A DNA stretch of 62,935 nucleotides, counting the filler, from Folioceros fuciformis (Eukaryota): assembly GCA_049999805.1 (NCBI GenBank). It is 12 parts of 12 records of this genome, joined end to end, with 100 filler letters (N's around TTAATTAATTAA, not from the genome) between each part and the next. Parts side by side here need not be neighbours in the genome. Positions count along the whole stretch, not along the records: positions 1 to 1,996 come from JBNGIO010001734.1; 11 more parts are not named here. The stretch is one strand, 5' to 3'. Positions 1-52,066 of this stretch are shown here, one piece after another; position 1 is the first letter of the stretch; every line of letters starts with the position of its first letter. The notes under the pieces were generated by a model. The model saw only the letters and a list, made by a program, of their open reading frames with translations. It searched no databases and had not been told where the DNA came from. A program made the position numbers and the translations under genes.

Positions 1-1996
1 CCTTGCAGAAGGGCAGGGAGCTTCACTCACAGATTGTCCACAGAGGTCTGCTGGATGATGTAGTGGTGGGAACCTGCGTGGTGGACATGTATGCAAAATG
101 TGGTGAGCTGGCATCTGCACGCCAGGTTTTTGAGAGTATGGCCTCGAAGGATGTGGTGACATGGACGGCCCTGATTACTGGGTATGCACAGCAAGGACTC
201 GGCGAAGAGGCGCTTGTTGTGTATGGACAAATGGAGGACGCAGGCCTCGTTTTGGCTAATGATGTTACTTTTGCTTGCCTTCTGAAGGCGTGTGCCAGCA
301 CTGGTGCCTTGCAGAAAGGCAGGAAGCTGCACTCACAGATTGTCCAAAGAGAACTGCTGGATAATGTACTGGTGGGCAACTGCCTGGTGGACATGTATGC
401 AAAATGTGGTGAGCTGGAAGATGCCCGCCAGGTTTTTGACAGGATGGACACGAAGGATGTGGTGACATGGAATGCCCTGATTGCTGGGTACGCACAGCAA
501 GGACTCGGCCAAGAGGCGCTTCTTGTATATGCACAAATGGAGGACGCGGGCCTCGGATTCGCTGACCATGTTACTTTTGCTTGCCTTCTGAAAGCGTGTG
601 GAAGCACTGGTGCCTTGCAGAAGGGCAGGGAGCTTCACTCACAGATTGTCAAAAGAGAACTGCTGGATAATAGAGTGGTGGGAAACTGCCTGGTGGACAT
701 GTATGCAAAATGTGGTGAGCTGGAAGCTGCCCGCCTGGTTTTCGATGGCTTGGCCTCGAAGGATGTGGTGACATGGACAGCCATGATCGCTGGGTATGCA
801 CAGCAAGGACTCGGGCAAGAGGCGCTTGTTGTGTATGGACAGATGGAGGAGGCAGGCCTTGTTTCGGCTAATGATGTTACTTTTGGTTGCCTCCTAAAGG
901 CGTGTGGAAGCATTGGTGCCTTGCAGAAGGGCAGGAAGCTTCACTCACAAATTGTCCAGAGAGGTCTGCTGGATGATGTAGTGGTGGGAACCTGCCTGGT
1001 GGACATGTATGCAAAATGTGGTGAGCTTGAATATGCACGCCACGTTTTTGACAGGATGGCGTCGAAGGATGTGGTGACATGGACGGCCCTGATTGCTGGG
1101 TATGCACAGCAAGGACTCGGCCAAGAGGCGCTTGTTGTGTATGGACAAATGGAGGAGGCAGGCCTCGTTTTGGCTAATGATGTTACTTTTGCTTGCATTC
1201 TGAAGGCGTGTGCAAGCAGTGGTGCCTTGCAGAAGGGCAGGAAGCTGCACTCACAGATTGTCAACAGAGAACTGCTGGATAATGTAGTGGTGGGAACCTG
1301 CCTGGTGGACATGTATGCAAAATGTGGTGAGCTGGAAGATGCACGCCAGGTTTTTGACAGCATGGCCACTAAAGATGTGGTGACATGGAATGCCCTGATT
1401 GCTGGGTATGGTGCTTGTGATGAAGGTCGCAAGGCGCTATCTTGTTTTGAGGAGATGTTAGCTGCCGGTGTTCATCCTGACGATGCTACTTTTACTTGCC
1501 TTCTAGTAGCATGCAGTCATTGGGGTCTGGTCGAGGAGGGTCGCAAGCTCTTTGATTCCATGTCTGAACAGCATGGTGTCATACCTACTGTTGAGCATCA
1601 CACCTGCATGATTGATCTTCTTGGGCGTGCTGGCGAATTAGATGAGGCAGAGAGGATGCTATTATCATGTGAGGGCCAAAGTGATGTGGTGTGTTTGACA
1701 TCTTTGTTGAATGCCTGCAAAAGTCATGGAGATCTAGAGAGGGCTGTGTGGTGTTTTGAAAGCATTGTTAGGCTGGACCCCCAGGTGGCACCTGCCTATG
1801 TTCTCATGGCCAATGCCTATGCAGATGCAGGTAGGTGGACCGATGTAGACAGGATTGAAACACAGAGAAAGGCAGCAGGAGCTAAGAAGAAGCCAGCAGT
1901 GGCAAGCATTGAGGTGAATAAGGAGGTACACAGATTTCTGGTGGGAGACAGGAGAAAGGATATTGCGCTTAAGGTAGAGAGCACGAATGCGCGTGT
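1..1996 (+). CDS. PLS-class PPR protein with P2-L2-S2-E1-E2 and the start of a DYW:KP-type domain (partial at both ends)
   Basis: Open frame with 102-aa (306-nt) P-L-S triplets (VVTWxALIxGYAQQG / DVTFACLLKAC / VVVGxCLVDMYAKCG). These are followed by P2/L2/S2, E1 (VVCLTSLLNACKSHG), E2 (AYVLMANAYADAGRW) and KKPAVASIEVNKEVHRFLVGD. The frame runs into the gap. Confidence 0.95.
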
Positions 1997-2096
1997 NNNN
2001 NNNNNNNNNNNNNNNNNNNNNNNNNNNNNNNNNNNNNNNNTTAATTAATTAANNNNNNNNNNNNNNNNNNNNNNNNNNNNNNNNNNNNNNNNNNNN
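1997..2096. other. Artificial contig linker N44-TTAATTAATTAA-N44. It recurs at 5549-5648, 10783-10882, 15646-15745, 21608-21707, 36880-36979, 39536-39635, 47092-47191, 51967-52066, 56917-57016 and 61200-61299
   Basis: Identical 100-bp spacer carrying a stop-codon cassette, present 11 times. Confidence 0.99.
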
Positions 2097-2549
2097 TTAA
2101 AGTAAGAGGAACATGAAAATAGCTTGCAAGCTTACAACCTTTGTTCTTCTAAGCCATCCCATCAAGTATAGTTATTGTTTCTAGGTATAGTTATTGTTTT
2201 TAGGTCATTTTTTTTTCTACATATCTAAGGTCCTTTTGGTTCAAGAGAAGCTTTTATGTATGAGTATATACTCTGAATACTTTGAATCTTATGAAGGTTG
2301 TTCCCTATTACTTAGAAATAAAGCTTATGTGATAGTACATAAAAGAGATATATTCTCTAGCACATTTTAGAAAGCCAATTTTCTCTTAGGAAAAAATCTA
2401 AAAGCCATTTTTTTCAAAAATTAGGATTCTTGGGCGCTAGGCCTAAATATCGGTTCGCCAAGGTACAGCCTTGCGAACCGACATGCCATGCCATGAGCAT
2501 GGCCTTCCTCTCCCCTGCCCCTCTCTCTCGTATCCGTGCCAACCCGCAT

Positions 2550-5540
2550 GAGGGGAATGAATTCAAGTTCACGTCGTCCTGATTGTCGTGGCAATTGCCG
2601 CGGCAATACTGCTCGCCCTTCGTTCGTTTCAGTTGAGAACGAGAGCGGAGAGAGCGCTCTGCTCAAAGCACAGCACACGGTAAGAGTTGAAAGACCGAAG
2701 GCTGGGGAGGATGCACGTATGCTGATCGTGCTCCAGCGATGGATGAGGTTGCAATGCATTGTCCTTTTGCAGTTCAAAGGCCTGGTGGAGGGAAATTTTC
2801 TTTCAATGACTTGGAATGGTAGCAATCCTCATACAAGCATCCATCTTGTCCTGGCCAAGACAAACAACGACAGCTAGCTTACATCCCTTGGACCAGAGTG
2901 CAGGATTTCATAGAGGGCATGAACTCATTGCCACATGCTCCGACAAATTATTACAAGGCATCTCATAGAGGGGCAGCCAGAAATACTTCAGCAGTAAGTT
3001 GTCTGAAGCTAGATGCAGCCATTGTCACAACACAGTACGTATGGACGCTAAGGATTCAATCTGTTTACTTTCTGCTTGTTGGTATCATTGAAAGATTTCA
3101 TCTTCAATGTTCTGCTTGCAGTTATTGGTGTGGATATGGGCCACATGACTTGCGGAATGTTTCCATGCCTCCACCACCTGTACCTATTACTGTGCAAGGT
3201 GAGAAGAAGCGTAGACGGTCTCGGATTGCTAATGGTGAAAGCATCAAACACGGTTGTCAAGCTTCGTTTGCCATTGCACAGTTATGAAGATGGCCAGTAA
3301 TTGCTCAAGTAACATTATACGAAACTATGCATGTGGATGTTTTTGGAAGAGTGTGTCATGGCCTAGAGTACGTAGGCATTCCAAGAGATGTCAGGGCTTC
3401 TCACTTGAGTGTTGATAAGAAGGCATGGGTGAAACATGGTTTACTGTGTAATGTTTATGTGTCAGAGATTCTTAGACGACACTAGGAGCAGGTGCGGGCG
3501 AAATGTTGTGGGCTTTCAACAAGCTTGGAGCATGAGTCACATTATGTCCAGGTTAGAGATGATTTCTTGACATGTGCAAACATTGACAATCTTGCTGTCG
3601 ACTTGCAAGGTACAGTGTGGAAACATAATGAGGATGACAATATTAGTGTGGGTATATGGATGTGGCTCAATGTTGCATTTGTGTTTCACAAGTCTATTGC
3701 TGATCAGTCGTTTTGTTTGGGAATTCAAACCATGTTCATGCTTCAAACCTGTTTTGACACATGGTAGGAATAATGTGCGCAAGATTGACTCCACGTTTGG
3801 TGTAAACTAGTACAAGTACCAACTCTTCACAATTATGGCATTCGACCGTCATATGAATGGTATTCCGGTAGCGTGGGTTTTGGCAAAGGGCGGTACAAGT
3901 GATACCATAGCCAGATGGTTGACATCTTTTCATGAGGTTCTGTTAAGTAAGGATGCAACTTGGTTGCCCTCCACAATATTGGTTGATGATTGTGCAGCTG
4001 AGATTGTTGCAATTCGAAAGGTTTACAATTACAATGTTCCTGTTCTACTTTGCCTCTGGCATGTGCGTCGTGCTTGGCTTCGTAATCTTATTAAGAAAGT
4101 CCAAAATAGGGTAGACAAGGAAGCCATATGGTAGGAATTAGGTGAACTAATGTACGTCAAGGGCCCCAGTGCATCAATTCAAGATACAATTCAGGAGGGT
4201 GAGCAGTTGCTATTTTCCTTCTATGCCAAGTGGGAGAAACGGCAACCCGCGTTCGTGGGCTATTTCAGAACAACCTGGGGTGCACAACTAGGTTAGTCCA
4301 TATCTCCAGCCTCATATTCTCCCTTTTCAAGCTTGTGCACATACACATCTTCACAAGGCCTGTTTTGATTGCAGGCATATTCATAAAAAATGCCTGCATG
4401 CTTTCGCATGCATGGCAAGAATGTGCCTCTGCTATAGAGGCATGACATCGGTTTTTTAAGTAGAAACTTAGTCTTACGAGGGCATCTCTTGCTGGCAAAT
4501 GAGTAGACTCGTTGTTACATCAATTATGCTTCGTAATTGCATCCCATTATTGGTATGTGAACCATTTCAAAGAAGGAGGGTATGTGGTTAACACAGCCGA
4601 GGGAAAACTGTTGCACACTGCAATAGATGGGGCAACTCTGATTGAGGATGATAATGTTACTTTGCCTTCCCCACCTTGTACCACAGCTTTATGAAGGAGT
4701 TCAACAAATGCCCATGTGACATATACAATTGAGAATGCAGATTCCATATGGGCTATATGTGAGTGCGCTCAAGGGAGGAAAGGCTTTATTTGTAAACATA
4801 TCGTGAAAGTGCAAGATATGCTTGGAGTGCTCTCATACACACTCCCAATAAAATGTTAGTATACAACAACGAATGGTCTGGTAATTCAGGAGCTTGTAAC
4901 AACTCTTGCTTTATGTGATAATAGAGAACAGTTGATGGAAAGCGTTTCGTGCAACCTGCAACCCGTTGTGGAGGGTGTTTTATGTAATGAAAGCGGAACA
5001 GAAGATCAGATTCACTTCCTGGAACAAGATTTTAATGCTATTGTGAATTTGATGCACAAGAATGAGGAAGTCGTTGGGGATGCAGCACTTTTGGTGAAAC
5101 GTACACTCATGGATGTCCAGCGTTTGATTGCATATGAGCAGGAAATGCTTGCAGCACGGCAGCCTCTTCAAACATTCACCACCAACGAGGGAGACAACAA
5201 CATCATCAAGACTAAGCCATTCTTCTCACCACCGAAGAAAAAGAATAAGAGAGTGACTTGGAAGTTATCAGCAGACAAAGGAAACCAGCGTAGGTGTAGG
5301 TGTGATGTAGGTGCCAGTAATGTCTCCCTTTAGATGTTTTGACCAATGCTGCAATTAATCAAAAACTCAGTCTTGGTGATCGTCCTCTTCGCTCGTCTTG
5401 ATGATCCTCCTCCACGCTTGCCACATTGCATCCCAACTGCACATGCCTGAACGATGTGCGTGTTGACGAGTTCGACTTTGTATTGTGCCAGAGTATCACC
5501 GCGATATTCAGGACGACGGGAACTTGAATTAGTTCCCCTC
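2550..5540 (+). mobile_element. Degenerate Mutator-like (MULE) DNA transposon with terminal inverted repeats
   Basis: Left end GAGGGGAATGAATTCAAGTTCACGTCGTCCTGA (2550-2582) is the imperfect reverse complement of TCAGGACGACGGGAACTTGAATTAGTTCCCCTC (5508-5540). The internal broken frame has MULE transposase motifs (GIPVAWVL, ILVDDCAAE, LCLWHVRRAW) and a SWIM finger CECAQGRKGFICKH near 4757-4800. Many stops are present. Confidence 0.85.
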
Positions 5541-7335
5541 GCCCTCGGNNNNNNNNNNNNNNNNNNNNNNNNNNNNNNNNNNNNNNNNNNNNTTAATTAA
5601 TTAANNNNNNNNNNNNNNNNNNNNNNNNNNNNNNNNNNNNNNNNNNNNCCTGCTGTCTGTCTCCTCCGATTCTGCGTCCGCTTCAGCGGCTGCGCCTTTG
5701 CCTTTCCTGCTGCTGTCCTGCGTCCCGCTCATTCATCCAGTTCAGGGCGCAGCGGGCCGGGCGGCCAATGAGGGCGGGATACGATCGGGGGCGTCAGCTG
5801 GCGCGGCAACGCGCGCACACATGGGCTGGAAATGCGAAGCTTACGAAAGTCTGGCGAGGCAGGATAGGATGGACGGTTCACTCGCCTGCGCTGGTGTATG
5901 GGCTCGACGGTTTGCTGCTGGCGGCTCTGCCCGGTCGGGACCATATATCTCACTCCTTCTGGCACCTTGGGGTACGTGGCGCAAAACGCACCCGCGCCAG
6001 CCCTCCCGGCGACGCGTGTCCCAAGCCCTTCCTGCTCACACCCAAATATCAAGCACGGTGCTCCCTCCTCGGGCCCCCTCGGGCCTCACCAAACCCATTA
6101 CGTGGCCGATAGCTCAAGCGCGGGGTTCCACCACCCGCCACCTGCCCCCTCCCTACACGCTGCCCAAATCGAAAAACGCGCTCTTACCGGGATCGGGGCC
6201 CCAGCCCTTCCACACCCGGCCGTGTGATCTCATAGAATCAGGACGCGCGGCTTGCCCGGGTTCGCGGCAAACCAGCACGTGCCTCCGGCTCGGGCACCAG
6301 CTTAGGGGAGAAGGCCTCGAGGCCCCGCGGCCCCGACTCTCGTCTCCCAGAATCAGACTCCCAGCTTCCCAGACAGACACATGGACATGCACTTCCATTT
6401 CCCTTCCACCCCCGTTGCGCGCTGCACACGCAAATGGAACAACGTCCTCCTTTCTTCCCATCTCTTCTGCTGCTGCCAAGCCACACCAAAACGGAGCCTC
6501 AAACTTGGTACGCACACACTCTCACTAACTGGAGGGCAGAAAATTCAATACCCAACTGCAACCATGGTAATACTGCTGATACTGTACAAGTACATCCCAT
6601 CCCATACTGTATGTAGGAAGAAGGCTAGAAACAAACAGACAAGTGTGCGGCAAAGGGGAGAGAGGAGCAGGGAAGCCACCAAGGAGGACCAACTGGGATA
6701 TTTTCCTCTCTCGTCTGGCACCTCTCTTGTCTTTTTACGCTGGCTACAGACTGCACATTCAGTGGAATTCAATGCAAAAGCTTGACTTGACTGCGAATAC
6801 AGCATTGGTTGAATACATGTATGTACACGAGTGTGTACTATACTGGGCCTGCTTGTGTGCAGGAGAAACCCCCTGGATGATGAGCTCCGAGTACGGGTGG
6901 GGCACCGGCAAGGTGACAGGACGACAAGGGAGGGTGTGTCGTTTGCTGGACGGAGCAGCCTCCCCCGACCTCCCTCCTTCCACATTCTCCTCCACTGCTT
7001 TGCTTCCGAGGGCTTTGACCTGTAGCTGCAGGCAGGACAAGGAGGAAGGAGCAAAGGAGGTGGCATTCAATGGAAGTGGTGGCGAGGAACGTGACAGAAG
7101 GCACGCCCAATTCTGGAAATGGGGAGGAAAGGGTACCGGATTGGGGCACCACCCTGCTTCGTGACGGGCTTCCACTCCGACCTGGACAAGCTGCCATTGA
7201 TGACGAGTACCCAAGGCTCCTTAGGAAAATAAATTACTTGATCCGGAGGGCTTCTCGGCTTCCTCCTCTTCGATGCACATGTCTGCCTGGTGCTAACAGA
7301 TCAGGACAACGTGGAGGACGATGTGTAAGGGGAAT

Positions 7336-8868
7336 TCAGGAGGGGCTGGCCGTTGCCGCCTTGTACTCTGGACTGTTGACGTAGGTTAAAGCTTCCTCCA
7401 GCACCTGCCTCATCCTGTGCACAGATGGCCGAACGTCTTGGTCCTTGAGGTATATTTCCTTCACGGTGGCCCACCCAAGGTCTGCTATGCTCTGGGGATC
7501 CCTCAGCACGGGGTCATCCTGGTCGTACTTGTCGCTCAAGGAGCTCTCCGAGGGCTCGACCTTGTAGGGCAGGTAGTGGAGGCCCAGCTTGGTGGCAGGC
7601 TCGCCGTAGTAGGTCCATGCAGCCCAGTCTGTGCCCAGGGGGATGATCTGGATGAACACGGCCCCCGGCCTCATGAACAGGAGGTGCGTCATTGCGGCAC
7701 CATGGACTCCCAGCATCACGTCGCACGAGTCCAGCACCTTGTACATGTCACGGAGCTCCATCGTTGCATCCGGAATGACGAGCCTGACAGCAAACCCCAG
7801 TTGTCGAGCAACAGCTTCTATCTGCTCCAGATTCATGATGATGCGGCTATCATTCCGGGCCAAAATCACTAACGTTGGCCTGCCTGGAGGCAGCATGCTC
7901 ATTGGCTTCGCAGCCATGCTACTCACTCCCTCGCCACCACTGAACGCTCGGTCCAGAACAGCTCGAAATCCTCGGATGCTCTCCCCGCCAGGCATGAACT
8001 CCGGCACCACAGCCAGCTCCTCGTGGAAGTGCACCCCGACCGTCACCTCCGGGAAGCAGTGCACTCTCCTGGTCCCCTCCAGATCGATCACCTCATAGTT
8101 GGTGAGCTGCCTCACCACATCCCGGTACTTGGAGAACCACCAGTCATGGTACTCCACGATGACGAACACAACCTCCCCCTTCAGATGCTGCGAGGTCACG
8201 TACACAGGAATCAGTCCGTCGTTGAACTCGTGGTACACATTTCCAGTGTATCCCCCCGTAGTGAACACCACGGCAGGGACTGTGTGATTCACATAGCACT
8301 CTGGAGCATTCTTCCTCTCCCCTCCAGATCCCCTCACGCTCCTCAGCACCAACTCGTGCACAGAGCTCATGGTGCTCTGCTCCCACTTCCTCGTGTATGG
8401 TCTTATCCTCTCCTCCCCTAAGGGAGTGTTCTCCAGAGCTGTGTAGAGCACAAAACTCCTCAGGGATCCCACCATGCGCACATCCCCCTTCATTGTGCAC
8501 ACATCCGTCCTGTAGTGCGACCGATCGCAGGAGAAGACTTCACCTCTGTGCATTCCCGGAAGCACCGGCACTCCCAGCCTCGCCTTCCCTGCGAGGAGAA
8601 TCGAATTAGGGCTAAAGCATCAAGAACGTCAGACAAGAGATGCAAGCAAGGACTGCTGTGCTATGCTTGACCAACCTGGGAGTAAGCCGGGAAGCGAAAC
8701 CCGCATATTGAGCAGAGCAGTGAGGAGGACGACCATGATCAACACCAGCGCGCCCACCAGCCGGAGTTGCATCCCCTTCCTGGGCTGCTGCCCGAGGCGG
8801 GATCGGAATCCCGCCATGTTGGAAGCGGCTCTGGAAGCGAACACCGGGCTGTCCCGCCCTTTCCTCAT
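7336..8868 (-). CDS. Glycosyltransferase family 61 protein (xylan arabinosyl/xylosyl-transferase-like), type II membrane protein. Exons 8868-8676 and 8588-7336
   Basis: Motifs CDRSHYRTDVC, IRPYTRKWE, GGYTGNVYHEFNDGLIP, GVHGAAMTH and FIQIIPLG. An N-terminal TM helix lies in the upstream exon. GT-AG intron 8589-8675 is phase-compatible. Start ATG may be 8868 or 8817. Confidence 0.92.
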
Positions 8869-11404
8869 GGCGAGCTCACCAGCCAGTCCACGTCCAGGGT
8901 GCCGGGCCAAGGGACATCGCCGTTCGCGTCCTATCTCACAAGTTGCCTTCACCCATCGGGTCCGACGGGAGGGATCCCCGGAGGATCCGACGACACGCAA
9001 CCGAGCTGTCAAACGATCGGTACATCCGGCTTCGGGGAAAGTCAAGTTATGGTAACTGTCGCCTTCTCACCTCCTTCTGCACAGACAGACGCGTTCTGCT
9101 ATTTGCTTGTTTTGCTTTGGGATGCTTGCTCTCCCCCTGTTTTCTTTCGTCTGGCTCAATTTGTACGTTTCCATGCTGTGCAAAGTTATCATGGATGAGA
9201 GAAGCTTCCCAGGAAGAGGGACACCAAGTGTCTCTACGTGGTAACATTTCCACGGGGGAGGCCCAACACTAGCCTGAGCACTCGATTCCACATCTGCGTT
9301 CTTGCTCTCAGTGCCTTGGGATTGGAAAGAAGATTTCCCTTGAAGTTTGCATCCTGCAACAGAGAACCAGCAGCAGCTCAGTTCCTGATGGTTGGTAAGA
9401 AGTAGATGGTCGGTTGGTGGGATCGAAGAGCAGAGATTGATGGGCAGCTAGTTCCTTAAAAAGCATGGTGGAGGGGTTTGATCTAGAAGTGTCAGTGGTA
9501 CCTCCGTGAGAAGTTCATCGAGGGCTGCAACCAAAGCATCCTTCCTGTTCAGGACCCACCTGGTGTCTTCGTAGCCGAGGAAGCCCAGCTGCCAGGGTCA
9601 CCAGTGACATCAGACAGGGTTGGTTGTGGAGAGGATGAGAGGAAGTGAGCTGCAGACAGAGGACTTACCATCACGGTGTCCCACAGGCAGACGTTTGGAT
9701 CCGGGTCATACCTTTGACCACCCCTGCAGGCCGAGTGGAGCAGGATTAGTGACGAACCAACCAGACCAGAGGTCTGTTGATTGCTGGATCAATAAAAGCG
9801 TGAGCTGTTGATGCTACTTTTCCTACCTTCAAGTATCACATTGGAGAGCAGACAGTGTGCGGCTGGAGGGGGGATGGAGGGATTGTGAAGTCTGTGCATC
9901 AAATGTGCCAACAAAACTCAGTGCTAAGACACTCTGCCAAGTACCGCGGTAATCGGAAGACTTGGTCACCAAAGACGCCCACAGAAACTGAGATGCATCG
10001 CACGAAGTCAGCCTTCATCTTCTGGGCCTCACTTTCAGTCAGAGCCTGATTCCTGCGGCAACAGAGCATTGTTGAAAGTGATGTTAGCACGCCACTGCTG
10101 GCCTTCTCACAGTATGTGAGCTGGATGTGCTCAGGAAAGCAAGTACCTTCTCATTTCATTATTGAGCCAGTTCTTGACAGGTAGGAAGAAGTTCTCAGTG
10201 CCACCCCTCCTTAAGGCCAGAAACCTCAACACAAACTCTCTGTCCCGCATTCTGTACCAGAGAATCAACGTGAGAAAGGATGTTGCAGCTGAGATTGACA
10301 CCAAGCTTTACGACTCCCGGGTAGACCTTTTGTGTGGTACTTCTTGACGAAACGCTTTCAGCATCGCCGGAATCAGAACTAGTTCTTCCAACAGATCGTT
10401 GTATCTGGGCAAGCGCGCAACCAGAAACTTAGGAAGGAAGCTTCCCCCCTAGCTACAGTGCGTTTTCTAAACACATGACCCACCTGCCTTGAAACACACA
10501 GTTGCGCAATTCCTGCTCGTTCAACTGTACCACAAACCGAGAGGAGAAATAAACAAGCCACGTTTGTGCCCAGACATCAGGGAGCCCTTCAATTCTTTCA
10601 CAATTGTGTGACACATTTCAGGCATAGAACATACCTGTGTGGACCCCATGTTGAGCCGCTCGAAGACCTGGTGCACGAAGGACAGAATGTAAGCAGAAAG
10701 GCGGCAGATGAGTCCAATTAGGAACTGGAGAGATGCACACCTCAAAGACGACATCATCGTCAGAATGACGTGAGATTGTGTGNNNNNNNNNNNNNNNNNN
10801 NNNNNNNNNNNNNNNNNNNNNNNNNNTTAATTAATTAANNNNNNNNNNNNNNNNNNNNNNNNNNNNNNNNNNNNNNNNNNNNGAAAATGCGCGTGGGAAT
10901 TATCGTAGGCCCCACCGCACCGCCTCCCAATTCCCTTAGTTATGACATAACGCTCATTCGCAATGCACATTACCGTTAGTATTTAAACCTCCCCCTCCCT
11001 CTCCCTCTCCCTCTCCCTCTCCCTCCAATCTCTCCCCATTCTGGCAACTCCAACCTTCCCACCTTTTCCTTTCCACTACCTTCCATATGGCCCATCATTC
11101 AACACTTACTACACATTTCCCTTGCACTTCATTAATGCATATAATTAATGTATTTAATTATTTATTTTAAATTAAATACTATTTTTATCATATTATATCA
11201 TATAAAAGAAATATGAACACTTCATTAACCTAACAAGCACTTATTCTCCCTAATTTTCATAGCTTGGTATTTACAACATCCTTCCATATAGGATGAAAGA
11301 CTCTTTTAATAGTCTATCTTATACTATTTTGGGAACAGTAGATAGGTTTTCTAGATGGTGTTCAAAGCAAAGCAGCTAGTACCTTTTCTTGGCTTGTGGC
11401 CGTG

Positions 11405-15645: not shown

Positions 15646-15745
15646 NNNNNNNNNNNNNNNNNNNNNNNNNNNNNNNNNNNNNNNNNNNNTTAATTAATTA
15701 ANNNNNNNNNNNNNNNNNNNNNNNNNNNNNNNNNNNNNNNNNNNN

Positions 15746-19200: not shown

Positions 19201-22200
19201 ACTCCGGGCAACGTTATTACGGTCCGCCTCTTCGGCCCAGGCCCAGGCCCAGGGCAGCGAAGAGTAAGTGGACTCGGTCCTCGGATGCCTATCTCGAGAC
19301 AAGTCGCGGGTAATCAACGTCCAACTTCTGCAGGAGGTTGGGCGTGGCTTTCCAATGGGGGGCCGCCACACCGCGCGCTCCGTGGATTACACCGCTGCCG
19401 CTGCCGCAGCGGCAGCAGCTGCCTTGAGGGGACTGGAATCGGAATATGATATTAGTATAAGGTGTGTACTTGAGAGGGCAGCGGAAAGAGGGAAGGAAGG
19501 CAGGCAGGATCCGGGGTGGCCTATTGAAGCCAAGCCGAGCCGAGCCGAGCCGCGTAGATCGTCATGCAGGCAGGCAGCAGTCTGCAGCTGCAGGCTGCGG
19601 CAGGCTTCTGCCACGGCCGCAGCCGCTGGCACTGCAGCAGCTCGCATTGCCTGTTCGTTCATTCACACACAGCGCAGGCCGCAGGAGGAGCAGCCAGCAG
19701 CCAGCAGCTTCATGTCGTTTTGTAAGAACATCCGAGTCCCTCCAAGGGCAGGGCAGGGCAATGCAATGCAAGGCAAGGCAAGGCAAGACAAGACTATGCA
19801 AGGCAAGGCAAGGCAACATTACGTGCTTGTCACCTGTTGCTGTGCCTCTGGCTGCTGCTCTGCACCCACCCTTGTGGACACTGGTGGGGGCGGGGCGGAG
19901 AGGAGAGGAGAGGAGAGACTGGGACATGGACCGGGACACAGACCCGGACCAGGACCAACCTGGCCCCGGCCGGCCCCACGGATCGGGTGCGGTCAGGCCT
20001 CGAATCCCGCGACGGTTGCATCCGCCATTCATTCGCAAGCCCTAACCCTGTGCCAGAATGTGGTGGAATCATAATGGAGGCATCTGCTTTTCCATGTCCA
20101 AACAAGCCTGGAAAGTTATGTGGCACCGCTTCCAATTTCCCTCTCGCAGCCTCGCTCACCACACTCTCCACCTCTGCACTGCACTGCACTGACTCCCCCT
20201 GCCTGGGCCTGCCTCCACCTGCCTGGGCCTGCCTCTCACTGACTGACTGCGTGGCGAGTCACGACGAGAGGGCCTGCATGCCTCCGCCTCCCCGCGCTCG
20301 TTCTCCCGCTTCAACCTTGCTTCCATCCCTTTTCACTTCCTCCCTTCCTTCCTTCCTTCTTTCCTTCCTTCCTCCCGCTTTTCCTCCCTTCCATAGCACC
20401 ATCATTCCCTAACAAACCCTACTCCTCCTCAATTCTACACACCCTCTGCTGTCGGCGCCACCGACGAAACTCCCTCCACCTGACAACCTACTCTACTCCA
20501 CCTTCGTCGCTGCCGCCACCTCCCTCGTCAACCTCTCCTGCTCCATAAACATCTGTATGCATGCAAGTACTACTACTTTCTCCATCAGGCAAGGCAAAGC
20601 TCCAAGCTCCATGCTCCCCCCGCTTCTCCTCCTCCTCCAAATGTGAATCCGGATGATACCGCTCCGCGACTCGACCTGGTCCACGCACGAACCAAACCAA
20701 CCAACCAACCCCGCCTGCAGCATTCCGTATGTCCCTTGACCACGACGGAACGGAGCCCTAGCCCCAGCTGGCAGCCCCAGCAGCGTCCGTTCCCGCTGTC
20801 GTCTTGCATCACCCCCCCATTTACAGGCGCAGGAGGTTTGCAGACAAGCAAGCTGTCTGTGATTTTCTTGTCTTACACTTCCCACATGATACGATACGCA
20901 GCAAGGGCGGTTCCCTGGGTTCCCAGCGCCAGCCCGCCCGCAACCCGTGACCGTAACTTCACCTCACCATGTCATCAAATCCCCGCTTCGCCGACCCCTC
21001 GCACGTACAACCCAGTACAGTAAGTAACTAGAAGCCACCTCACCTCGTCAACGTTCTGTCATGCTGCCGTCCCGACGGAACGGCAGTGCCGCAGCCACGC
21101 CATGCCCCAATCCGATTCCCAACATCTCTCATACCATTTTTTTATCAAATATTCTCATGCTATAATCGGGCTCGGCGTCACCACCGTCCCGAGCACCCAG
21201 ATTCTTTCTTCCCTCTTTCGCTTATTTCAATTCAGGCGAGTCAAATGGAAGGCTGGCCTATCCTCGCCACGCCACGCCACGCCACGCCACGCCTCACCTC
21301 GCCTCGCCTCGCCTCGCCCAGCGGGCGGGGAACGCCAGATTTCAGCATCCCCTCCTTGTGGCGGCATTTTGTCGCCTTGTCTGCGTCGCTTTAAATTCAA
21401 AATCTGGCGCACACCTTCGCCCGCGCTCACCCCGATGATGCAGCAATCTACGTAACTTTGTGTACATTCTATTCAACAACAAAACAACATGTGCAGCCGG
21501 GATTTGGGCACCTGGATTTGGATTTGTGCACTCCATGCCGTAATCAGCGTCTCTTAAATCTCAACGCAACGGTAGATAATATCCAAATCTCGATGCACGC
21601 ATAGGGCNNNNNNNNNNNNNNNNNNNNNNNNNNNNNNNNNNNNNNNNNNNNTTAATTAATTAANNNNNNNNNNNNNNNNNNNNNNNNNNNNNNNNNNNNN
21701 NNNNNNNAGACTGACAGCCGAGCCGGGTGTAGGAGGAAGGACGGACGGCACAGATGCGGGCGGACGGCAGACAAGGCAGCGGCAAAGGAGACTGCGCGAT
21801 GCAAGGCTAGACAACGCTAGGGCGGAGGACAGCCAACAACAGGTGCAGAAGACACGCCTTCCAGAACCAGATGGGAGGGCGAGGAAGAAGAAACAGGGCA
21901 AGGGCGAGGGAGAAAGCGAGGCAAACCTGGAAAGGGAAGGAAAACTCGAGAAACGCCCAGACACTGCCAGAGTGCCAGAAACGCCACTCCCTTTCCCATT
22001 CTCTCACAATGCTCCATTTTACCCGTCCATAATTCTGTAAAACTGCAAAATGCCACTTGGACAACGTCCTGGCGTTTTTGTACAGTATAGTACATGCTCG
22101 CACTCGCTGCATCTCTGCGGCTTCCAATATTCGCTCAAATTTTCGTCACTCTTGCCTGCATTATTCTTACTTTCGTATTAATTTCGACTAGAGCGATTCC

Positions 22201-22304: not shown

Positions 22305-22466
22305 TAAAACCCTAAACCTATTTTTTAATAAGATATATTAATTATAACAAAGGTAAAAAAATACTAAACAACATACATGGTGTACTATGAACCTACATGG
22401 CTAAACCTAATCCTAATCCTAAGACTTGGCTAACCCTAATCCCTAAACCCTAAACATGGCTAAACC
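22305..22466. repeat. Telomere-like (AAACCCT/TAATCCCT) units immediately 3' of the kinase ORF
   Basis: AAAACCCTAAACCTA near 22307 and TAACCCTAATCCCTAAACCCTAAAC at 22431-22455. Confidence 0.7.
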
Positions 22467-23902
22467 CACATGTCTTCGAAAAAAACGTCTTTCTTAATTC
22501 TACTTGTTGTGTTATTGCGTGGCATCCGATAAATAAATCTATTTAATTGTTCAAGATTGTTGATGGAGAGTTTTTTGTCTCTAATACTTCGATTCAAAAT
22601 CATTCGGGCGACATATTCCACCCATATTGCATTAATATTAGGGTAGCTTTGGTCCCACTTCCCTTGAGCAATTTGGTGCACACGTCTCCAAGTTTGGTCC
22701 AAAAAATAATTTGGTATCCTTTGTTTGGCAAGATTTGTAAATATAACCTCGGAGCCATGTTGCATACGTGATAATCCAAAATCTATAATAGACGCTTTCA
22801 ATCCATGTGTTTTGATTATTTCTCTTTCGTTGTTCGTGATATATAATTCAAGACTTTTGTCGTCTCCTGTATAAGTTATAAGAATGTTTTTGGTATGGAG
22901 ATCTCGATGTTCAAACCCATATGCGTTTTCTGCTACCTGCAAGGCCAAGGTTACTTGTAACAATACACTTTTGACTTCATGCAAGGTATTAAATTTAAGT
23001 TTTGACAAAGAAATCCCGCCATCTTCTTGCGCAATTATCATGAACCTTTGATTAGGTTCATAGACCATAGGAAAGTTGGACTTCTCCATCGCTGCCCATT
23101 CTGACTTGGCATGCATAAAAAGCTCAGAGTTTAGAAACTCTCCTCTCCAAATTTCATTCCATTTGTTACATATAAAGTTGGTGCAGAAAAAAAGAGCATT
23201 CGGATTTCGTAAGGTCGCCAAAGTATTGCCAATCAATAACTCCTTAAAATTATCATCCTTCTCAAGATTATCATCCTTTTTCATAGGTATCACTTTAATT
23301 ATTTGACCATTCACCTTAAAAATTTCTGCATAAAAACCTTCACCAATCTTTGTCACACATGGTCTTATAGAAGAGTCAAAAAAAGATGAATAGTGGTGAT
23401 ATAAGTCGTCATAATATGCTTTTGAAGCACCGTCAAATCCGACACCCTGAGGATTACCGGCCTCCGAATCTTGCAAAGAAGTTCTAACACCAAAGTTCGG
23501 AGGACTACTACAAAGCTGCAAAGAATTTCTAACACCTAAGCTCGGAGGATGGGCGACGTTGAAGCTTGGAGAACCCATGAGATCAAAACCTAGTAAATTA
23601 ATGAGATCAGAACCTAATAAATGAGTGGTGTATGAACTCAGCTCTACCTCCGGCACCAAATTCGGCTTAGTTCTAACACCAAAGTTCGGAGGACTACTAC
23701 AAAGCTGCAAAGAATTTCTAACACCAAAGCTCGGAGGATGGGCGACGTTGAAGCTTGGAGAACTCATGAGATCAAATCCTAGTAAATTAATGAGATCAGA
23801 ACCTAATAAATGAGTGGTGTATGAACTCAGCTCTACCTCTGGCACCAAATTCGGCTCCAGACCTAGAGCATGAGGTCGAAAATTTTGTTCAAAATGAGGC
23901 AT
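22460..23902 (-). CDS. Divergent, intronless haspin-like Ser/Thr kinase
   Basis: KIGEGFYAEIF (Gly loop), IIKVIP (Lys), KELLIG (alphaC Glu), SVLLQVTLALQVAENAYGFEHRDLHTKNILI, ASIIDFGLSR and W..SYPNINAIWVEY. The FEHRDLH context and the C-lobe are haspin-like. First ATG at 23902. Confidence 0.8.
   Translation of the reverse strand: MPHFEQNFRPHALGLEPNLVPEVELSSYTTHLLGSDLINLLGFDLMSSPSFNVAHPPSFGVRNSLQLCSSPPNFGVRTKPNLVPEVELSSYTTHLLGSDLINLLGFDLMGSPSFNVAHPPSLGVRNSLQLCSSPPNFGVRTSLQDSEAGNPQGVGFDGASKAYYDDLYHHYSSFFDSSIRPCVTKIGEGFYAEIFKVNGQIIKVIPMKKDDNLEKDDNFKELLIGNTLATLRNPNALFFCTNFICNKWNEIWRGEFLNSELFMHAKSEWAAMEKSNFPMVYEPNQRFMIIAQEDGGISLSKLKFNTLHEVKSVLLQVTLALQVAENAYGFEHRDLHTKNILITYTGDDKSLELYITNNEREIIKTHGLKASIIDFGLSRMQHGSEVIFTNLAKQRIPNYFLDQTWRRVHQIAQGKWDQSYPNINAIWVEYVARMILNRSIRDKKLSINNLEQLNRFIYRMPRNNTTSRIKKDVFFEDMWV
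23480..23856. repeat. Near-identical 189-bp in-frame tandem duplication (63 aa x2) in the kinase N-terminus
   Basis: GTTCTAACACCAAAG starts at 23481 and 23670. The peptide PNLVPEVELSS...PPNFGVRT is repeated. Confidence 0.95.
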
Positions 23903-24559
23903 TGTAGGATGCTTAGAGCAATGGTACCTTGATTCAACTAAATACACAAGATATAGTTCTAAGATCAATATGCATGATAAATCTTTACGAAAGTTCTTGC
24001 AAGTCGACACTTACAAGAGAAGAGAAAAAATGGTTGAGGTTGTCCATTATGGTAAGAGCTAACCTATTCATAGTGAAATACTTTGTAAACTTTCCAAATA
24101 AAGTTAGGGTTACTTTCATTTTTAGTACAAGTAAACCATATGTTTATGCGTACACCAAGAGGTAAGTTAAGTGCAACTTGCTAAATAATGACATAAAGAC
24201 TATGCATAATGCCAACCTAGTATATTCTTTAATTAGGTCAATATTATTCTAAATCCTAAACTTTTAAATTCAGAGTTAATTCTAACTTGGGTGTAAAATT
24301 GAGATACTTCTTCTTTGAGTCATCTTGTTGCTATTCAAGCATGTGTGCTTAAGAGCATTGTTACACGGTACATAAAATTGGTGGAACGTGTGCAGTATGT
24401 TACCTGTATATTTATTCTCAATACGTTATTATATTTAAAATCCTCAAATGACCATAAAGTATGTAATAAAATACTTAACAATTAATAAATAATAAATGTA
24501 TCACGAAGACATAATACTCAAAACTTAAATCTCAAACCACATCAAGGCATCACAATCAA

Positions 24560-36879: not shown

Positions 36880-36979
36880 NNNNNNNNNNNNNNNNNNNNN
36901 NNNNNNNNNNNNNNNNNNNNNNNTTAATTAATTAANNNNNNNNNNNNNNNNNNNNNNNNNNNNNNNNNNNNNNNNNNNN

Positions 36980-39535: not shown

Positions 39536-42500
39536 NNNNNNNNNNNNNNNNNNNNNNNNNNNNNNNNNNNNNNNNNNNNTTAATTAATTAANNNNNNNNN
39601 NNNNNNNNNNNNNNNNNNNNNNNNNNNNNNNNNNNAGACATTCCCTTCTGGGGGTGGGGGATGAATGAGACATTCCCTTCTGGGGGTGAAGAGATTGCTT
39701 GGAATTGGACTCGGATAGTTATCGGAGTTTGATTCACCGGATTGAACTTGGCGACCGTATTTTTTATTCTTAGTCGCAGAGGCTTGGCCTCTGCAATTTG
39801 GACAATCTGTTGACGTGTCAAATAGCAGTGGAGAGGGTCGTGTGCGAGGCTATTGTGAAAATTCTTGTCCTACACTTTTCTGTCACCGTGCAAGAAACAA
39901 AGATTTTGAGCTCGGATCACCTTCCATATAGTATTATACGCACCGAAAAGTGTTCTTGTTCCCACTCCTGGTCCAATCATCTCTGCGAAGTCCTGGTTGT
40001 TTGTGCTCTGTCCCAGGAACAGACGGCAGCGTTTGCCAATGTGTGCCATTATGCCGTAGTCTACCCATCCCCATGTGCTGTTTCCTACAGCACGTTGAAC
40101 AAGTGGCAACCTCATGTATCCGACCTATTGCCATGTGCCAGGTCCTTCCCGTTGATGAGAAAGAGTCAAGGGCTACAACTGTGATGGCTGGTGTAACGTG
40201 CGTGCGCAGCGAGAAAGATAGTTAGCACATTTCAGAGTAGTGCGATCACTTCTGACAGTTTGTATGTAATTGCCAGCACCGAACAGCTCAGCTGAGTGCG
40301 GTTGAGGGCGGGCCCACGGGCATGTTCTTCTTCTTTGCGCAAGGTGTCTTGCTCTTGCACAGAGTGTTGTCAAGCATCGGCGGCGGGCAACGTCACGGGC
40401 TGCGTTCCACTGGCATACTGGCTCCCCGTCTGCCACGCGAATGCACGAATACGCATACGAAGGAGCATTATTCCGCGTCGGCAGTACCTCTTGGGAACAG
40501 CCATTTTCCTAAGCGAAGGGAGGGCATGTGTTTTTTTCGCGGAAATTGAGCCGTTCCCGATTCTTGCAATTAGACACAGCCCAGAGTGTGGAGACATGTC
40601 AGGGCCAAGCCAAGGCCAGGCATCGTGGTGATGTGGTTATGCTATCCACGTCTGTTCCGCGCACCCTCCCTCCAGTCCCTGGTGGCAAGCGGAGTAAATC
40701 GCCCTTTCGCATCAATATGCCTGGATGGGCCATGAGCGGGATCTCCTTCGCTGGATCTTGGAATTTTTCGGCGTCTGATTTGGAAGCAGAAAGTTGGTGC
40801 ATTTAGCGGCTCAAGATCAATCACGGCCGTATGCCCAGTTCCAAAGGTGAGCAAAGCAATTTCACAGTCCTGTGCATGGGGTTGTCCCGTGTTAGGGATG
40901 GGGTGTAGCGTTCATCACGAGGGTTCACTGATGCATGCATGTTGTTTTTCTGTGTGATTACAGTACACCTGATAAATTTGACGTACGTCAGCTCCTGCCG
41001 GGAAGTGACTCGCTCGGCACGACATTGAAGAGGACAGGGAGGGGGAAGGACAGGTAGGCGGAATTCTGGGCTGAGCAGCACGCAAATTTGGAGGCCTATG
41101 GTCTAATCCAGGGCTGGATTCGAGTGACGGGGTCTTTCTCTCTGTGTGGAACAGGGGTTATTGAGCTGTCTCTCTTACCGTCTTGTAGATGGAAGAACCT
41201 AACAGCAGCCAAGGACACAGTGTCACGTCGAAATTTTTGACGAAGATGAGGACAGGAGGCATAGGTGAGTTCTCACTCCTTGACTGTTTTGTCTTCGTTT
41301 GCAGAATAGGGCAAAAAGCCAATTCCTTGCTGTGGAAGCTGATTATTCAGATGGTTGTGGCCGTCTTTGGCCGATAGTTGTGCCTGCAAATGTTGGAGGT
41401 TGCTATTCAGGTTTCAAGACTGTTGCTATGTAACTTTAATATAAACTTACCAAGTGCAAGGTGGACTTATGGGTCACCGAGGTGATACGTCATCGTCATC
41501 CTTTTGCTTTGTTCAGAGGCAGTGCCAGTTAATGGAACCAAGTTCTCATGGTGTGGGCTTCGGAACTCTCACCATTTCCGTGTGCTGTAGTGGGTTTTGG
41601 ACGAATCCATGACGGTGGAAGCACTGAGGATGAGGAACCATTTCTGAATGCATATGACGAACCCCTTCCTTGTTGCGGGTGTGGGATTGGCTGGTGTTCG
41701 TAAGTTTTTCGTCCACCCACCCACTCAGTTCCCTCGCGTCATTTTCTGTTAGGCGGAGACCTTGTCCAGTGACTTGCTGAGAGTGACGTTGTAGGTTTCT
41801 TGTGGGATTCGTTGTTCCATTGCTGTGGTTCTATGGCACTTACGTGTTCTTCAAGACTCCACGACAATATGACCCACGAGACAGACCTGGACTGGCTGCA
41901 TGTGCTATTGCCGTGAGTTCGCTACCTTGAACCTCTGTGTTACGGGTGGCAAGCTCCGGTATTTTTCTTCTTGGCTCAACTTCGGGCCGAATTTTCATCA
42001 TCGAAGGAAGTAACTTCCGGGTCTGCAGGCTCTGGCGTGCACAGTTGGAGCTTTAATTGCTGGCATCGTCCTTCTGTTGCAACTTGTAGTTTCCCACTGA
42101 AGAGGTGAAGAAAGAGTGCGGCATTTTTCTGACTCATCATAGGTACGCCTGATCTACTGTCATCTGTTTCAGAGAGACGTCGTGACCGTCCCGCAGCTGC
42201 GCTGTGAGTGATGGCAAAGATGTAGTTGAGTGGAAGGGCAGGGCTTCGGTGCGTTTAGGTTGAATAAAGTAGGGCTAGTGCAGGTTTTTCCGTGTCTTAG
42301 CTCAGGTTTAAGCAGAGAAAAAACGCCAAACCTGTAGTACATTGACTGTCATAGAAGTTGCCATGGTCAGATCTGCTTTTGTCCTAGACTGCTGTTGACA
42401 AAAGGTGTCAGCACACAGGTTGCGATACGCTCATCACATATGTGATTTCTGTTGTCCCGGATATACACTAGGACAGGTCTGCATTCCTCCCGGATATACA

Positions 42501-42838: not shown

Positions 42839-45191
42839 CTACACAAATACAAGATGCAAGCGCATATCAAATTTGGGTTCCAGCGGTGAGCTTGCTCTCC
42901 TAATCAGCAGCAGTGGTTGCAAGGAAACACTACCTGCTGGTCTGGGCCTTCTTTTCAAGGGAACAATTTTGATCCTCTTGGCCAGTCGCACAAATTCTCT
43001 GCACACGGGACAGACATGTCAGAAGCTGAAAGCTCCATCCAACAACTCCACCAGATAACATCACTTCCGAATGGCCAGCTCGCCGAAAGCATGGCATGTG
43101 CCCCATGGACACTCACCTCCAGGAAGTGTCGCCAGCAAGAAGGGTGTCGCCTTCATCGTCCTCATACGCAATCTGGTAGCCAGGAATAGCAGTGACTGGA
43201 TGGAAGACACTACCAGATGCACCTGTTTCGTCTGGAGGTAAGCTGCTCCCAAACATCGCTCTCAGGTGGGCAGTAAAACTCTCGTAGCTGTCAAAATCGA
43301 GCAAGTTGATCCTTCTGCCAGTGTCCCTACCTTCGAAGACAAGAGGTACCTGCTGGGGCTGACCTTGAGGCGTTAAATCAAAACCAGGCCTATCTAACTG
43401 AAAGCCTGCAACCTCCATGCCTGGACTGCACAACTGGAAGGGGGGCCTCCCGTGGCCTGCATACTGTGAGGGCAGGAAGTCACGAAATCCCGCTGCACCA
43501 CCTGCAGATGCCATCGGCCTCGGCAGAGGTATTTGAGGAACCTGCATCATCCCTGGAGCTGCTGATCCCCCGAGTCCTGGTCTAGCAAATACGCGATCTC
43601 CCGGGTGTGGCCGCTGCGCATGCCCAGACTGCTGCACCACGTCATAGGGAGCAAAGGGAAATCCTAGTCTAGCAGGATCTGCAGGTCGAAAACGAGGCAA
43701 AAATGGTGCAGACGGCCCCCCCGCCAGCTTCTGCATGGTCGCCTCGGCACTGGAGTGGTGCAGGAGTGTAGGATGAACCATGTCCATGTGACCTAATTGA
43801 CGTGGCCCTGGAATGCTCTGTGCCGGCCGGCTTTGATTGACGTGAAACTGATTAAAGAAAGGAGTGGGAGGTGCAGGAGCCTGGGGGTTGTCATGAGGAG
43901 AGGAGCCCATAAACTTGCCGTCGAAACCACCTGGCCCAGGAATCAGTAGTCCTGGCCCTTGCCCTTGCCCTTGCCCTTGCCCTTGCCCTGGACCTGGGCC
44001 TGGGCCTGGGCCTGGACCTGGGCCTGGGCCTGGGCCTGCGCCTGCGCCTGGACCTGGGCCTGGGCCTGGGCCTGGGCCTGGGCCTGGACCTGGGCCTGGC
44101 CCTGCCCCCTGCTCTAGCCCTTCCCCTTCTCCTTCCCCTTGGCCAGGCCCCTGCCCTTGAATTTGCACTGCATGGGCATGTGGAGAGGCATGAGTTGCAG
44201 CCTCCCTCATGGCATGCCGTTGTTGCTGGCCTTCAAAAGGTGATGGATGCCTGAACGGTAAGCTCCTCTGCCCCGTATCAGCAAAGCGAGCGCCCTGTAC
44301 AGCACTATCGGAGGCTGGCGGTTCCCTCCCTTTGGTGTCCTCAGACGGAGAAGGCGCGGTTCGAGGATGAGGAAGAGGATGACTCGGATGATGATCAGCA
44401 CCCGCACGCTCGGAGACCAAGGGCATTGCTGATGGATCCGCCCTTGTGAGGAACAGCAGTTCCGACGCATCCTGTCTAGAAGGTGGCCTGTCGGACCAAT
44501 CGGAGGGAATTCCAGGAAGTCCCAAGCCCGCAGCTGCTCGGTCCTGTCTGGACTCCATGCTACTCAACATGTCTGGGTCATACACAGGTTGCTTGGGGAA
44601 AAATTGGCGCTCCTGCTGAGGCTCCTGAGTTCGCAGCATTCCGCCGTGCTGCATGGAGACATCCTCACGAGCGGGTGTATCCCGAGGGGATGCGTGGCCA
44701 GCAAGTGCAGGAGGCGGAGGTGGCGGCGAAAGCCACCAGGGCTTGGTGTCCCTGACCTGGCTGCTGCTCCCCGTTTCTGCTGCCGAGGGCGATCTTCCCA
44801 GCGAGATGGACGGCGGTGTGTCCACGGAGTGCCTTTTGGAGAGGGGAGTAGGGGCAGAAGCAAAGCTGCTGTCGTCCCGGTCGTCCGACGAGGTCCTGGC
44901 GCGCTTCTTGGGTGGGGCGGACACGACACCACCTTCTCCCTCTTCCGGGACTTGGTGGGAAAGCTCGGAAGCCTGGTGGCCCTCCCCTGCGCCTCCTGAC
45001 ACATTTCTGTCCGCAGAGGCCGGTGATGCTCCTGAAGCAGACGCAGGCTCCGGTGCGGGTTGTGACCTGGATTGGGCCAGAAGAGGTGATGGTGTAGGTG
45101 GTGGGGACTGCTGGTGGGCTGGTTGTGAATCTGAAGCCTGGGCCGCCGTGGCGGCAGTGTGGGAAACGGCAGAATCTTCATGATCCGCCAT
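42839..45191 (-). CDS. Non-canonical Aux/IAA (IAA33-like PB1 domain) with a long disordered N-terminus. Exons 45191-43117 and 42998-~42839
   Basis: QVPLVFEGRDTGRRINLLDFDSYESFTAHLRAMF...AIPGYQIAYEDDEGDTLLAGDTSWR|EFVRLAKRIKIVP; intron 42999-43116. The start codon and the extreme C-terminus are uncertain. Confidence 0.85.
43953..44105. repeat. Coding hexamer microsatellite giving (GP)n/(GQ)n runs
   Basis: (CCTGGG/CCTGGA)n and (CCCTTG)n, in frame. Confidence 0.95.
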
Positions 45192-51566: not shown

Positions 51567-52066
51567 TAGGCTAAGCCGTGCCACAAGCACTGCCAGGAAA
51601 ATTAATTTATGCCACAACCTTAATCACATCCTCATCTCTTGCTTCACATGCAGTATCGAGTGCCAACTGGATGTTTAGGACGTCACCACAGTAGTTGTCC
51701 AGCCTCGCACATGATGCACACCCTGCCACTCTACGTTTCCACTCCTTTTCGTGCACGACCTTGGAAAGGAGGAACGATATCAGTTCCCTCACTGCAACCT
51801 GGGGCTTGTCGTGGCTTACTGAACTCAGCTTGAGGTTGAAGAGGAGTGTGCAAAAGCAAAGCAGGAGACGGCAGATATGAAATATAGAGAAAAGCACCTC
51901 GTTCCAGACCTAGAGAGGCATTGGTTTGAGCAGGCAAGTGTCTGGAGAAGCGACCCTACCCCCGCCNNNNNNNNNNNNNNNNNNNNNNNNNNNNNNNNNN
52001 NNNNNNNNNNTTAATTAATTAANNNNNNNNNNNNNNNNNNNNNNNNNNNNNNNNNNNNNNNNNNNN

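Follow-up and report, generated by a model that had tools for sequence, protein, structure and literature searches.

A contig-end PPR gene fragment of Folioceros fuciformis as a candidate DYW:KP-type RNA-editing factor

The question raised by this locus is whether a PPR gene fragment that runs to the end of a Folioceros fuciformis contig belongs to a reverse RNA-editing factor, that is, one that converts U to C, and where the catalytic part of that factor might be encoded. The DYW:KP class of PPR proteins has been known since 2020 (Gutmann et al. 2020 and Gerke et al. 2020 are reportedly the primary descriptions), and a single genome of a hornwort, lycophyte or fern encodes many of its members. 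To our knowledge, the class is the sole known enzyme family for site-specific U-to-C conversion of RNA. The fragment (P0001) is a further, truncated member of this known family. We examined it within the window, meaning the whole stretch of DNA that was analysed (62,935 nt), and the results suggest that nt 3–1994 are probably the 3′ portion of a nuclear DYW:KP gene of the PLS type, from a GRP-like subgroup, which would encode a U-to-C factor and was truncated by assembly. The features on which this reading draws are as follows.

Positions 3 to 1994, + strand: PPR gene fragment P0001, an open reading frame of 664 codons with Pfam PPR, PPR_2 and E_motif matches.
Positions 1 to 1410, + strand: tandem array of 306-nt units, 4.6 copies, 88% matches, no indels.
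Positions 1377 to 1685 (residues 459–561, approximate), + strand: P2-L2-S2 motifs, placed by the register of a synthetic PPR-DYW chain.
Positions 1686 to 1886, + strand: segment between P2-L2-S2 and the KP box, defined by Pfam E_motif (residues 575–637) and TPR_14 (residues 565–604) and by alignment with KP and PG proteins.
Positions 1887 to 1916 (residues 629–638), + strand: KP box, KKPAVASIEV, in place of the canonical PG box.
Positions 1917 to 1994, + strand: N-terminal region of the DYW:KP domain, 26 residues past the box, with a 4-residue deletion at the SHPQ position.
Positions 1997 to 2096, no strand: artificial spacer between contigs, TTAATTAATTAA flanked by 44 N on each side; the window has 11 identical copies.

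The fragment is read in frame 3 of the + strand, with no stop through its 664 codons, and only the final two bases of the contig (nt 1995–1996) follow the last of these codons. It is cut on its 5′ side by the window edge, so that the N-terminal PPR motifs of the gene fall outside the window, and on its 3′ side by the contig end. Pfam PPR matched the product in 13 stretches (1.3e-94) and PPR_2 did so at 7.7e-89 (best stretch, residues 457–505), followed by the E_motif match at 5e-14. Together with an alignment to full-length relatives, these matches gave the order of motifs as a PLS-class PPR array, then P2-L2-S2-E1-E2, then the KP box, although the P2-L2-S2 boundaries were counted by hand from a printed repeat unit and are hence approximate.

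By the definition used in the PPR field, the KP or PG box marks the start of the DYW domain. The original prediction had pointed to a KKPAVASIEV sequence after E2, where PGxSWIEV is canonical, and to the lack of the usual SHP motif in the segment that follows, and both observations were borne out. The box lies at nt 1887–1916, within the interval originally highlighted (1800–1996) and after the Pfam E motif match, and it aligns with the PGCSWIEV-type boxes of proteins with an HSE zinc motif, having a Lys-Pro pair instead of Pro-Gly. Past the box, in the stretch that the prediction had quoted (residues 643–658), the alignment shows a 4-column gap exactly at the S/x-H-P-Q site. This gap is common to all 10 aligned proteins with an HAE zinc motif, which marks the absence of SHP as a deletion that characterises the class, as opposed to random drift; S/x-H-P-Q is present in P0010, a lycophyte protein considered below, and in the 63 HSE rows with coverage there. 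Among contigs from public sequencing runs, the prevailing differences within the box codons in two runs (X3 and X4; 1892 G>A, 1895 A>T and 1904 A>G) were synonymous when read by hand, and a further difference (1886 G>C) changes the lysine directly before the KP box.

How much of the domain the fragment holds can be gauged from the full-length relative P0002, whose box begins at residue 817 of 950, giving a DYW domain of 134 residues by the same definition. The end of P0001 is equivalent to P0002 residue 852; thus, 36 of about 134 residues are present and about 98 C-terminal residues are absent, and the fragment ends before H-x-E, CxxC, the lysine equivalent and the terminal triplet. In P0002, the Pfam E_motif match (763–825) covers the box, and the DYW_deaminase match (858–948) starts approximately 41 residues after the box start. 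Because the Pfam model starts this late, a gene cut just past its box gives no Pfam DYW signal. Indeed, Pfam DYW_deaminase (PF14432) did not match P0001, as the sequence ends 6 residues before the model start, which reflects truncation and not divergence.

The missing part was originally expected beyond the gap that follows, an expectation that the window does not support. The gap is a spacer, an artificial six-frame-stop join between the 12 unrelated contigs that make up the window, and it is neither part of a gene nor a gap of measured size. Its copies stand at 1997–2096, 5549–5648, 10783–10882, 15646–15745, 21608–21707, 36880–36979, 39536–39635, 47092–47191, 51967–52066, 56917–57016 and 61200–61299. 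The 12-mer TTAATTAATTAA occurs 11 times in the window, versus 0 expected from 100 shuffles, and the window's 22 runs of N are each exactly 44 long. The contigs so joined range from about 2 to 15 kb, with GC of 0.37–0.63 across 2-kb windows. The relative position of features on opposite sides of a spacer is therefore without meaning, and N runs flanking TTAATTAATTAA mark contig joins in this record, so that the sequence past such a join is not to be taken as continuing the one before it. Nor was a DYW core, with its HxE...CxxC, found elsewhere in the 62.9 kb. When the window was searched by tblastn with 11 KP-type C-termini (230 residues each), the 19 matches obtained lay between nt 72 and nt 1997; with P0002 and P0013 as full-length queries there were 8 matches and nothing past nt 2000. 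A DYW-core profile run against 1,542 six-frame pieces of the window reached a best E-value of only 0.81 (as a control, the same profile detected 125 proteins among the collected set).

To which class the fragment belongs was assessed from homologues of its last 195 residues. At an E-value of ≤0.001, 559 proteins were retained among 1,716 candidates, and 120 of them were listed. The best 8 by E-value among these 120 (P0002–P0009), as well as P0023 and P0032, have a KP-type box, CGHAEKLA and CxxCH, and end in non-DYW tails (GRP, DRH, DHH, DAH and others). The closest among the matches listed was P0002 (62% identity, 100% coverage). Both zinc motifs were present, by pattern match, in 75 of the 120 listed proteins (64 HSE, 10 HAE and 1 HVE).

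We constructed a tree from the region upstream of the box only (P0001 residues 470–626; 75 rows, with P0055 dropped as too short), and labelled its rows solely by the downstream H-x-E residue to avoid circularity. P0001 grouped with three GRP-tail proteins (SH-aLRT 96), and this group was nested in the HAE group (support 90), itself nested in a 12-row clade that included P0010 of Diphasiastrum (support 100). All 63 HSE rows fell on the opposite side of the tree (support 100).

Two further comparisons agreed with the tree. When the last 70 residues were compared with 268 collected proteins (242 aligned), ranks 1–14 were all proteins with a KP-type box (12 with HAE and CxxCH, 1 with HVE and 1 truncated), and PG types appeared from rank 15. 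We also scored the last 80 residues against profiles of the segment from E2 to the early DYW domain, built from 18 HAE (KP) and 86 HSE (PG) proteins. P0001 scored 113.6 bits on the KP profile versus 77.7 on the PG profile, the segments including the box and the 18 KP-profile sequences having themselves been found by similarity to P0001. This KP margin of 35.9 bits is within the HAE range: in leave-one-out scoring, the KP profile gave the better score for each of the 18 HAE members (margins of 5.6 to 48.7 bits), and the PG profile did so for 19 of the 20 HSE members sampled; only P0055, which lacks the region, departed from this. The assignment of P0001 as a DYW:KP-type PLS PPR protein and candidate reverse-editing factor thus holds up in three tests, none of which depends solely on the KP box. 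Of the original prediction, the class stands, by tree, ranking and profile and by the definition in the literature (PMC9478123, PMC11845758), and the placing of the deaminase beyond the gap does not.

The KP class is defined by its N-terminal KP pair, and the PG and KP subclasses differ in this box, in the surroundings of HxE(x)nCxxC (HSE versus HAE) and in the last three residues (PMC9478123, PMC11845758). The same reports describe KP proteins as confined to hornworts, lycophytes and ferns, the lineages with U-to-C editing, and recognise two hornwort KP subgroups, DRH and GRP (PMC9478123, PMC11845758). P0001 resembles the GRP subgroup (PMC9478123) in the order of its PLS array, P2-L2-S2-E1-E2 and KP box. 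Of the matches listed, those closest to it are P0002, P0004 and P0008, the same GRP-tail proteins that it grouped with in the tree (55%–62% identity over the last 195 residues; clade support 96). This GRP affinity would tentatively suggest a hornwort as the source. P0001 differs from that subgroup in lacking the approximately 98 C-terminal residues, including HAE...CxxCH and the GRP-tail region, and in the unusual regularity of its array, whose 4.6 PLS triplets are 88% identical in nucleotide sequence.

Canonical DYW:PG proteins (e.g., the OTP86 DYW domain, PDB 7o4e, and the synthetic PPR-DYW protein 9kfx) are homologous in architecture and in their domains. The KP relative P0002 matched 9kfx at 1.5e-200 (residues 342–947) and 7o4e at 1.5e-27 (residues 822–948). 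DYW:PG factors nonetheless differ in having a PG box, SHPQ, HSE and a DYW tail and in editing C-to-U, and P0001 scores 36 bits lower on their profile. A further point of comparison is P0010, from the lycophyte Diphasiastrum complanatum, which has a KP-type box like that of P0001, together with HVE and a DFY tail. In the upstream-only tree it branches as the sister of the HAE clade (support 100), but it retains SHPQ and scores 102.1 versus 99.0 bits on the KP and PG profiles, unlike the clear margin of P0001. Nine HVE/HCE proteins with odd tails were observed in all (P0010, P0132, P0141, P0209–P0211, P0241, P0257 and P0262). Eight of the nine scored nearly equally on the two profiles, and P0262 scored higher on KP (88.1 versus 59.1 bits); judging from these motifs and scores, they look like intermediate or third-type DYW variants.

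For the function of P0001, the closest models are the synthetic proteins KP2, KP3 and KP6, which are consensus designs of the same class and were compared by their published descriptions (PMC9478123, PMC11845758, PMC11332814). U-to-C activity, the need for Lys88 and RNA crosslinking have been demonstrated for these designs; they are consensus proteins, whereas P0001 is native. Synthetic consensus KP proteins edit U-to-C in bacteria and in human cells (PMC9478123, PMC11845758). For such assays, proteinase treatment ahead of RNA extraction proved necessary (PMC11845758, PMC11332814). Lys88 is described there as essential for U-to-C editing, and its replacement switches the activity to C-to-U (PMC11845758). 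This lysine has been proposed as the nitrogen donor, acting via a crosslinked intermediate, and native enzymes must, according to that proposal, resolve the crosslink otherwise than the synthetic proteins do (PMC11332814). In these reports, U-to-C activity is demonstrated solely for consensus-designed proteins (PMC9478123, PMC11845758, PMC11332814), and the literature searched contained no report of a native KP protein experimentally assigned to a site.

From these synthetic consensus proteins and from family membership, we infer that the native P0001 product edits U-to-C. Its PPR array would recognise a particular sequence in an organellar RNA, and its C-terminal DYW:KP domain would act on a uridine a few nucleotides downstream, converting it to cytidine. 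The absent 3′ end, judging from the relatives, would encode an intact zinc site of the HAE...CxxCH type together with the lysine of the active site, and would finish with a GRP-like tail. A site-specific organellar U-to-C factor is the best-supported reading of the gene, with its RNA-binding part seen in the fragment and its catalytic part and activity presumed.

A competing reading is that the protein is KP-class by sequence yet edits, in its own organelle, from C to U or in both directions, without being dedicated to U-to-C conversion. Synthetic KP6 edits C-to-U in human cells and in vitro, and single substitutions, such as that of Lys88, turn KP proteins to C-to-U (PMC11845758, PMC11332814). 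Moreover, the residues that decide direction belong to the part absent from P0001. Against this, the class occurs only in U-to-C lineages and matches U-to-C sites by the PPR code, according to PMC9478123, and the GRP-based designs KP2 and KP3 edited U-to-C (PMC9478123, PMC11845758). We consider a C-to-U or dual role unlikely, and a dedicated U-to-C role for the P0001 product remains the reading that we prefer.

Why the gene stops where it does was examined through its close relatives. A near-identical full-length protein was not found in the databases searched, where the best identities were 62% (near lengths) and 38%–40% (longer proteins). A search of a representative library, in which ranking was mainly by summed PPR repeats, added KP examples but no close relative. 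We therefore turned to assembled contigs from four public runs (X1–X4), aligned to nt 1400–1996 (597 nt) at a likeness of at least 90%. The runs gave 368, 404, 5,811 and 6,696 contig records, of which 77, 53, 978 and 1,167, respectively, had a likeness of at least 99%. None of the contigs listed spanned the whole of nt 1400–1996, all of them being too short. The contigs came from at least three organisms, at 90%–99% likeness, and many odd internal joints were observed in X3 and X4. Such numbers fit a family of very many close paralogues or orthologues that expanded recently, whose members would be prone to cross-assemble and whose shared domains would be points at which assemblies break.

Some of these contigs reach past the end of the fragment. 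Beyond nt 1994, three runs have loose ends that stay in frame (from 5, 13 and 7 contigs, with an agreement of 0.93–0.97), and their hand translation, L/M-K-Q-E-G-G-H-V-P-H, is similar to KP homologues at the same alignment columns. Their base at nt 1995 is not that of the window, so they are from relatives and not from the P0001 locus itself. One X2 contig, with 1 difference in 144 nt, runs 25 nt beyond nt 1996. Most likely, then, P0001 was truncated where the assembly broke within a large family of paralogues; very many of these have the downstream domain in common, which is probably why the contig reaches only 36 residues into the domain.

Alternatively, P0001 could be a dead or naturally truncated copy, either a pseudogene or an E2-type protein that has a KP box and no catalytic domain, whose product would be at most an RNA-binding specificity factor. 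In favour of such a copy, the sequence ends 36 residues into the domain, and decayed copies are usual in large families, as this one apparently is (368 to 6,696 contig records over 597 nt). However, the frame is open over 664 codons, dN/dS among the internal repeat units is 0.29–0.54, and the end of P0001 coincides exactly with the assembly spacer, with no stop codon there, while the near-identical contig continues 25 nt past nt 1996 and the relatives remain in frame. Taken together, the open frame, dN/dS and the in-frame continuation of relatives make an intact gene cut by assembly more likely than a pseudogene, and we regard a dead or truncated copy as slightly less probable still than a different direction of editing. 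That P0001 is instead a canonical DYW:PG (C-to-U) factor with a merely drifted PG box was already disfavoured and is very improbable: PG and KP proteins are homologous and P0001 does reach 77.7 bits on the PG profile, but it scores 35.9 bits higher on the KP profile, its upstream columns place it in the HAE clade independently of the box, it shares the 4-residue deletion with HAE proteins, and its top 14 of 242 matches are KP-box proteins.

Upstream of the box, the tandem array may offer a view of how the specificity of a KP-type protein may arise. Each 306-nt unit is one P1-L1-S1 triplet of 102 codons, and the four complete units have pairwise nucleotide identities of 84.6%–94.4% and the dN/dS values given above. 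Aligned with one another, these four triplets differ at 28 of their 102 columns. In the PPR code, T/N reads A, N/D reads U and T/D reads G, and L motifs predict target bases poorly. We take variable columns 5 and 36 (P motif) and 76 (S motif) to be base-reading positions under this code. Across the four units, P-motif column 5 reads T, N, T, T and column 36 reads N, D, N, N, and column 76 (position 5 of the S motif) reads N, N, T, T. Column 36 was taken as the last residue of the P motif after a one-residue insertion, following an alignment of P0002 with the synthetic chain 9kfx, and a single inserted residue shifts the register of the motifs at the P1/L1 junction. By this code, the second unit would have been re-tuned at both P-motif reading positions together. 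It is conceivable, if rather doubtful, that reverse-editing specificities originated in this manner, with a P1-L1-S1 triplet copied at least four times and its base-reading positions then changed while the rest stayed under purifying selection. If true, triplet duplication and re-tuning would be a route to new U-to-C targets for the large KP family.

One more copy of a DYW:KP gene, and an incomplete one, adds little. A full-length native gene of the GRP type would be useful for understanding how native enzymes finish the U-to-C reaction, for which the P0001 locus needs completing first.

The other contigs of the window contain several matches to different families. In the contig after the first spacer, a weak match to a MULE transposase was observed at 3835–4131 on the + strand (1.2e-4; 22.8 bits, under the Pfam cut-off of 27.6). 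On another contig, a long open frame on the − strand (22463–24010) matched a Haspin-like kinase (2.2e-27) and is without a close named relative, its best named match being from Selaginella (34%). Two more long open frames on the − strand, each in a different contig from P0001, matched domains of plant type, Glyco_transf_61 (GT61; 7339–8619, 1.8e-11) and an AUX/IAA-type C-terminal region (43116–45464, 2.1e-5).
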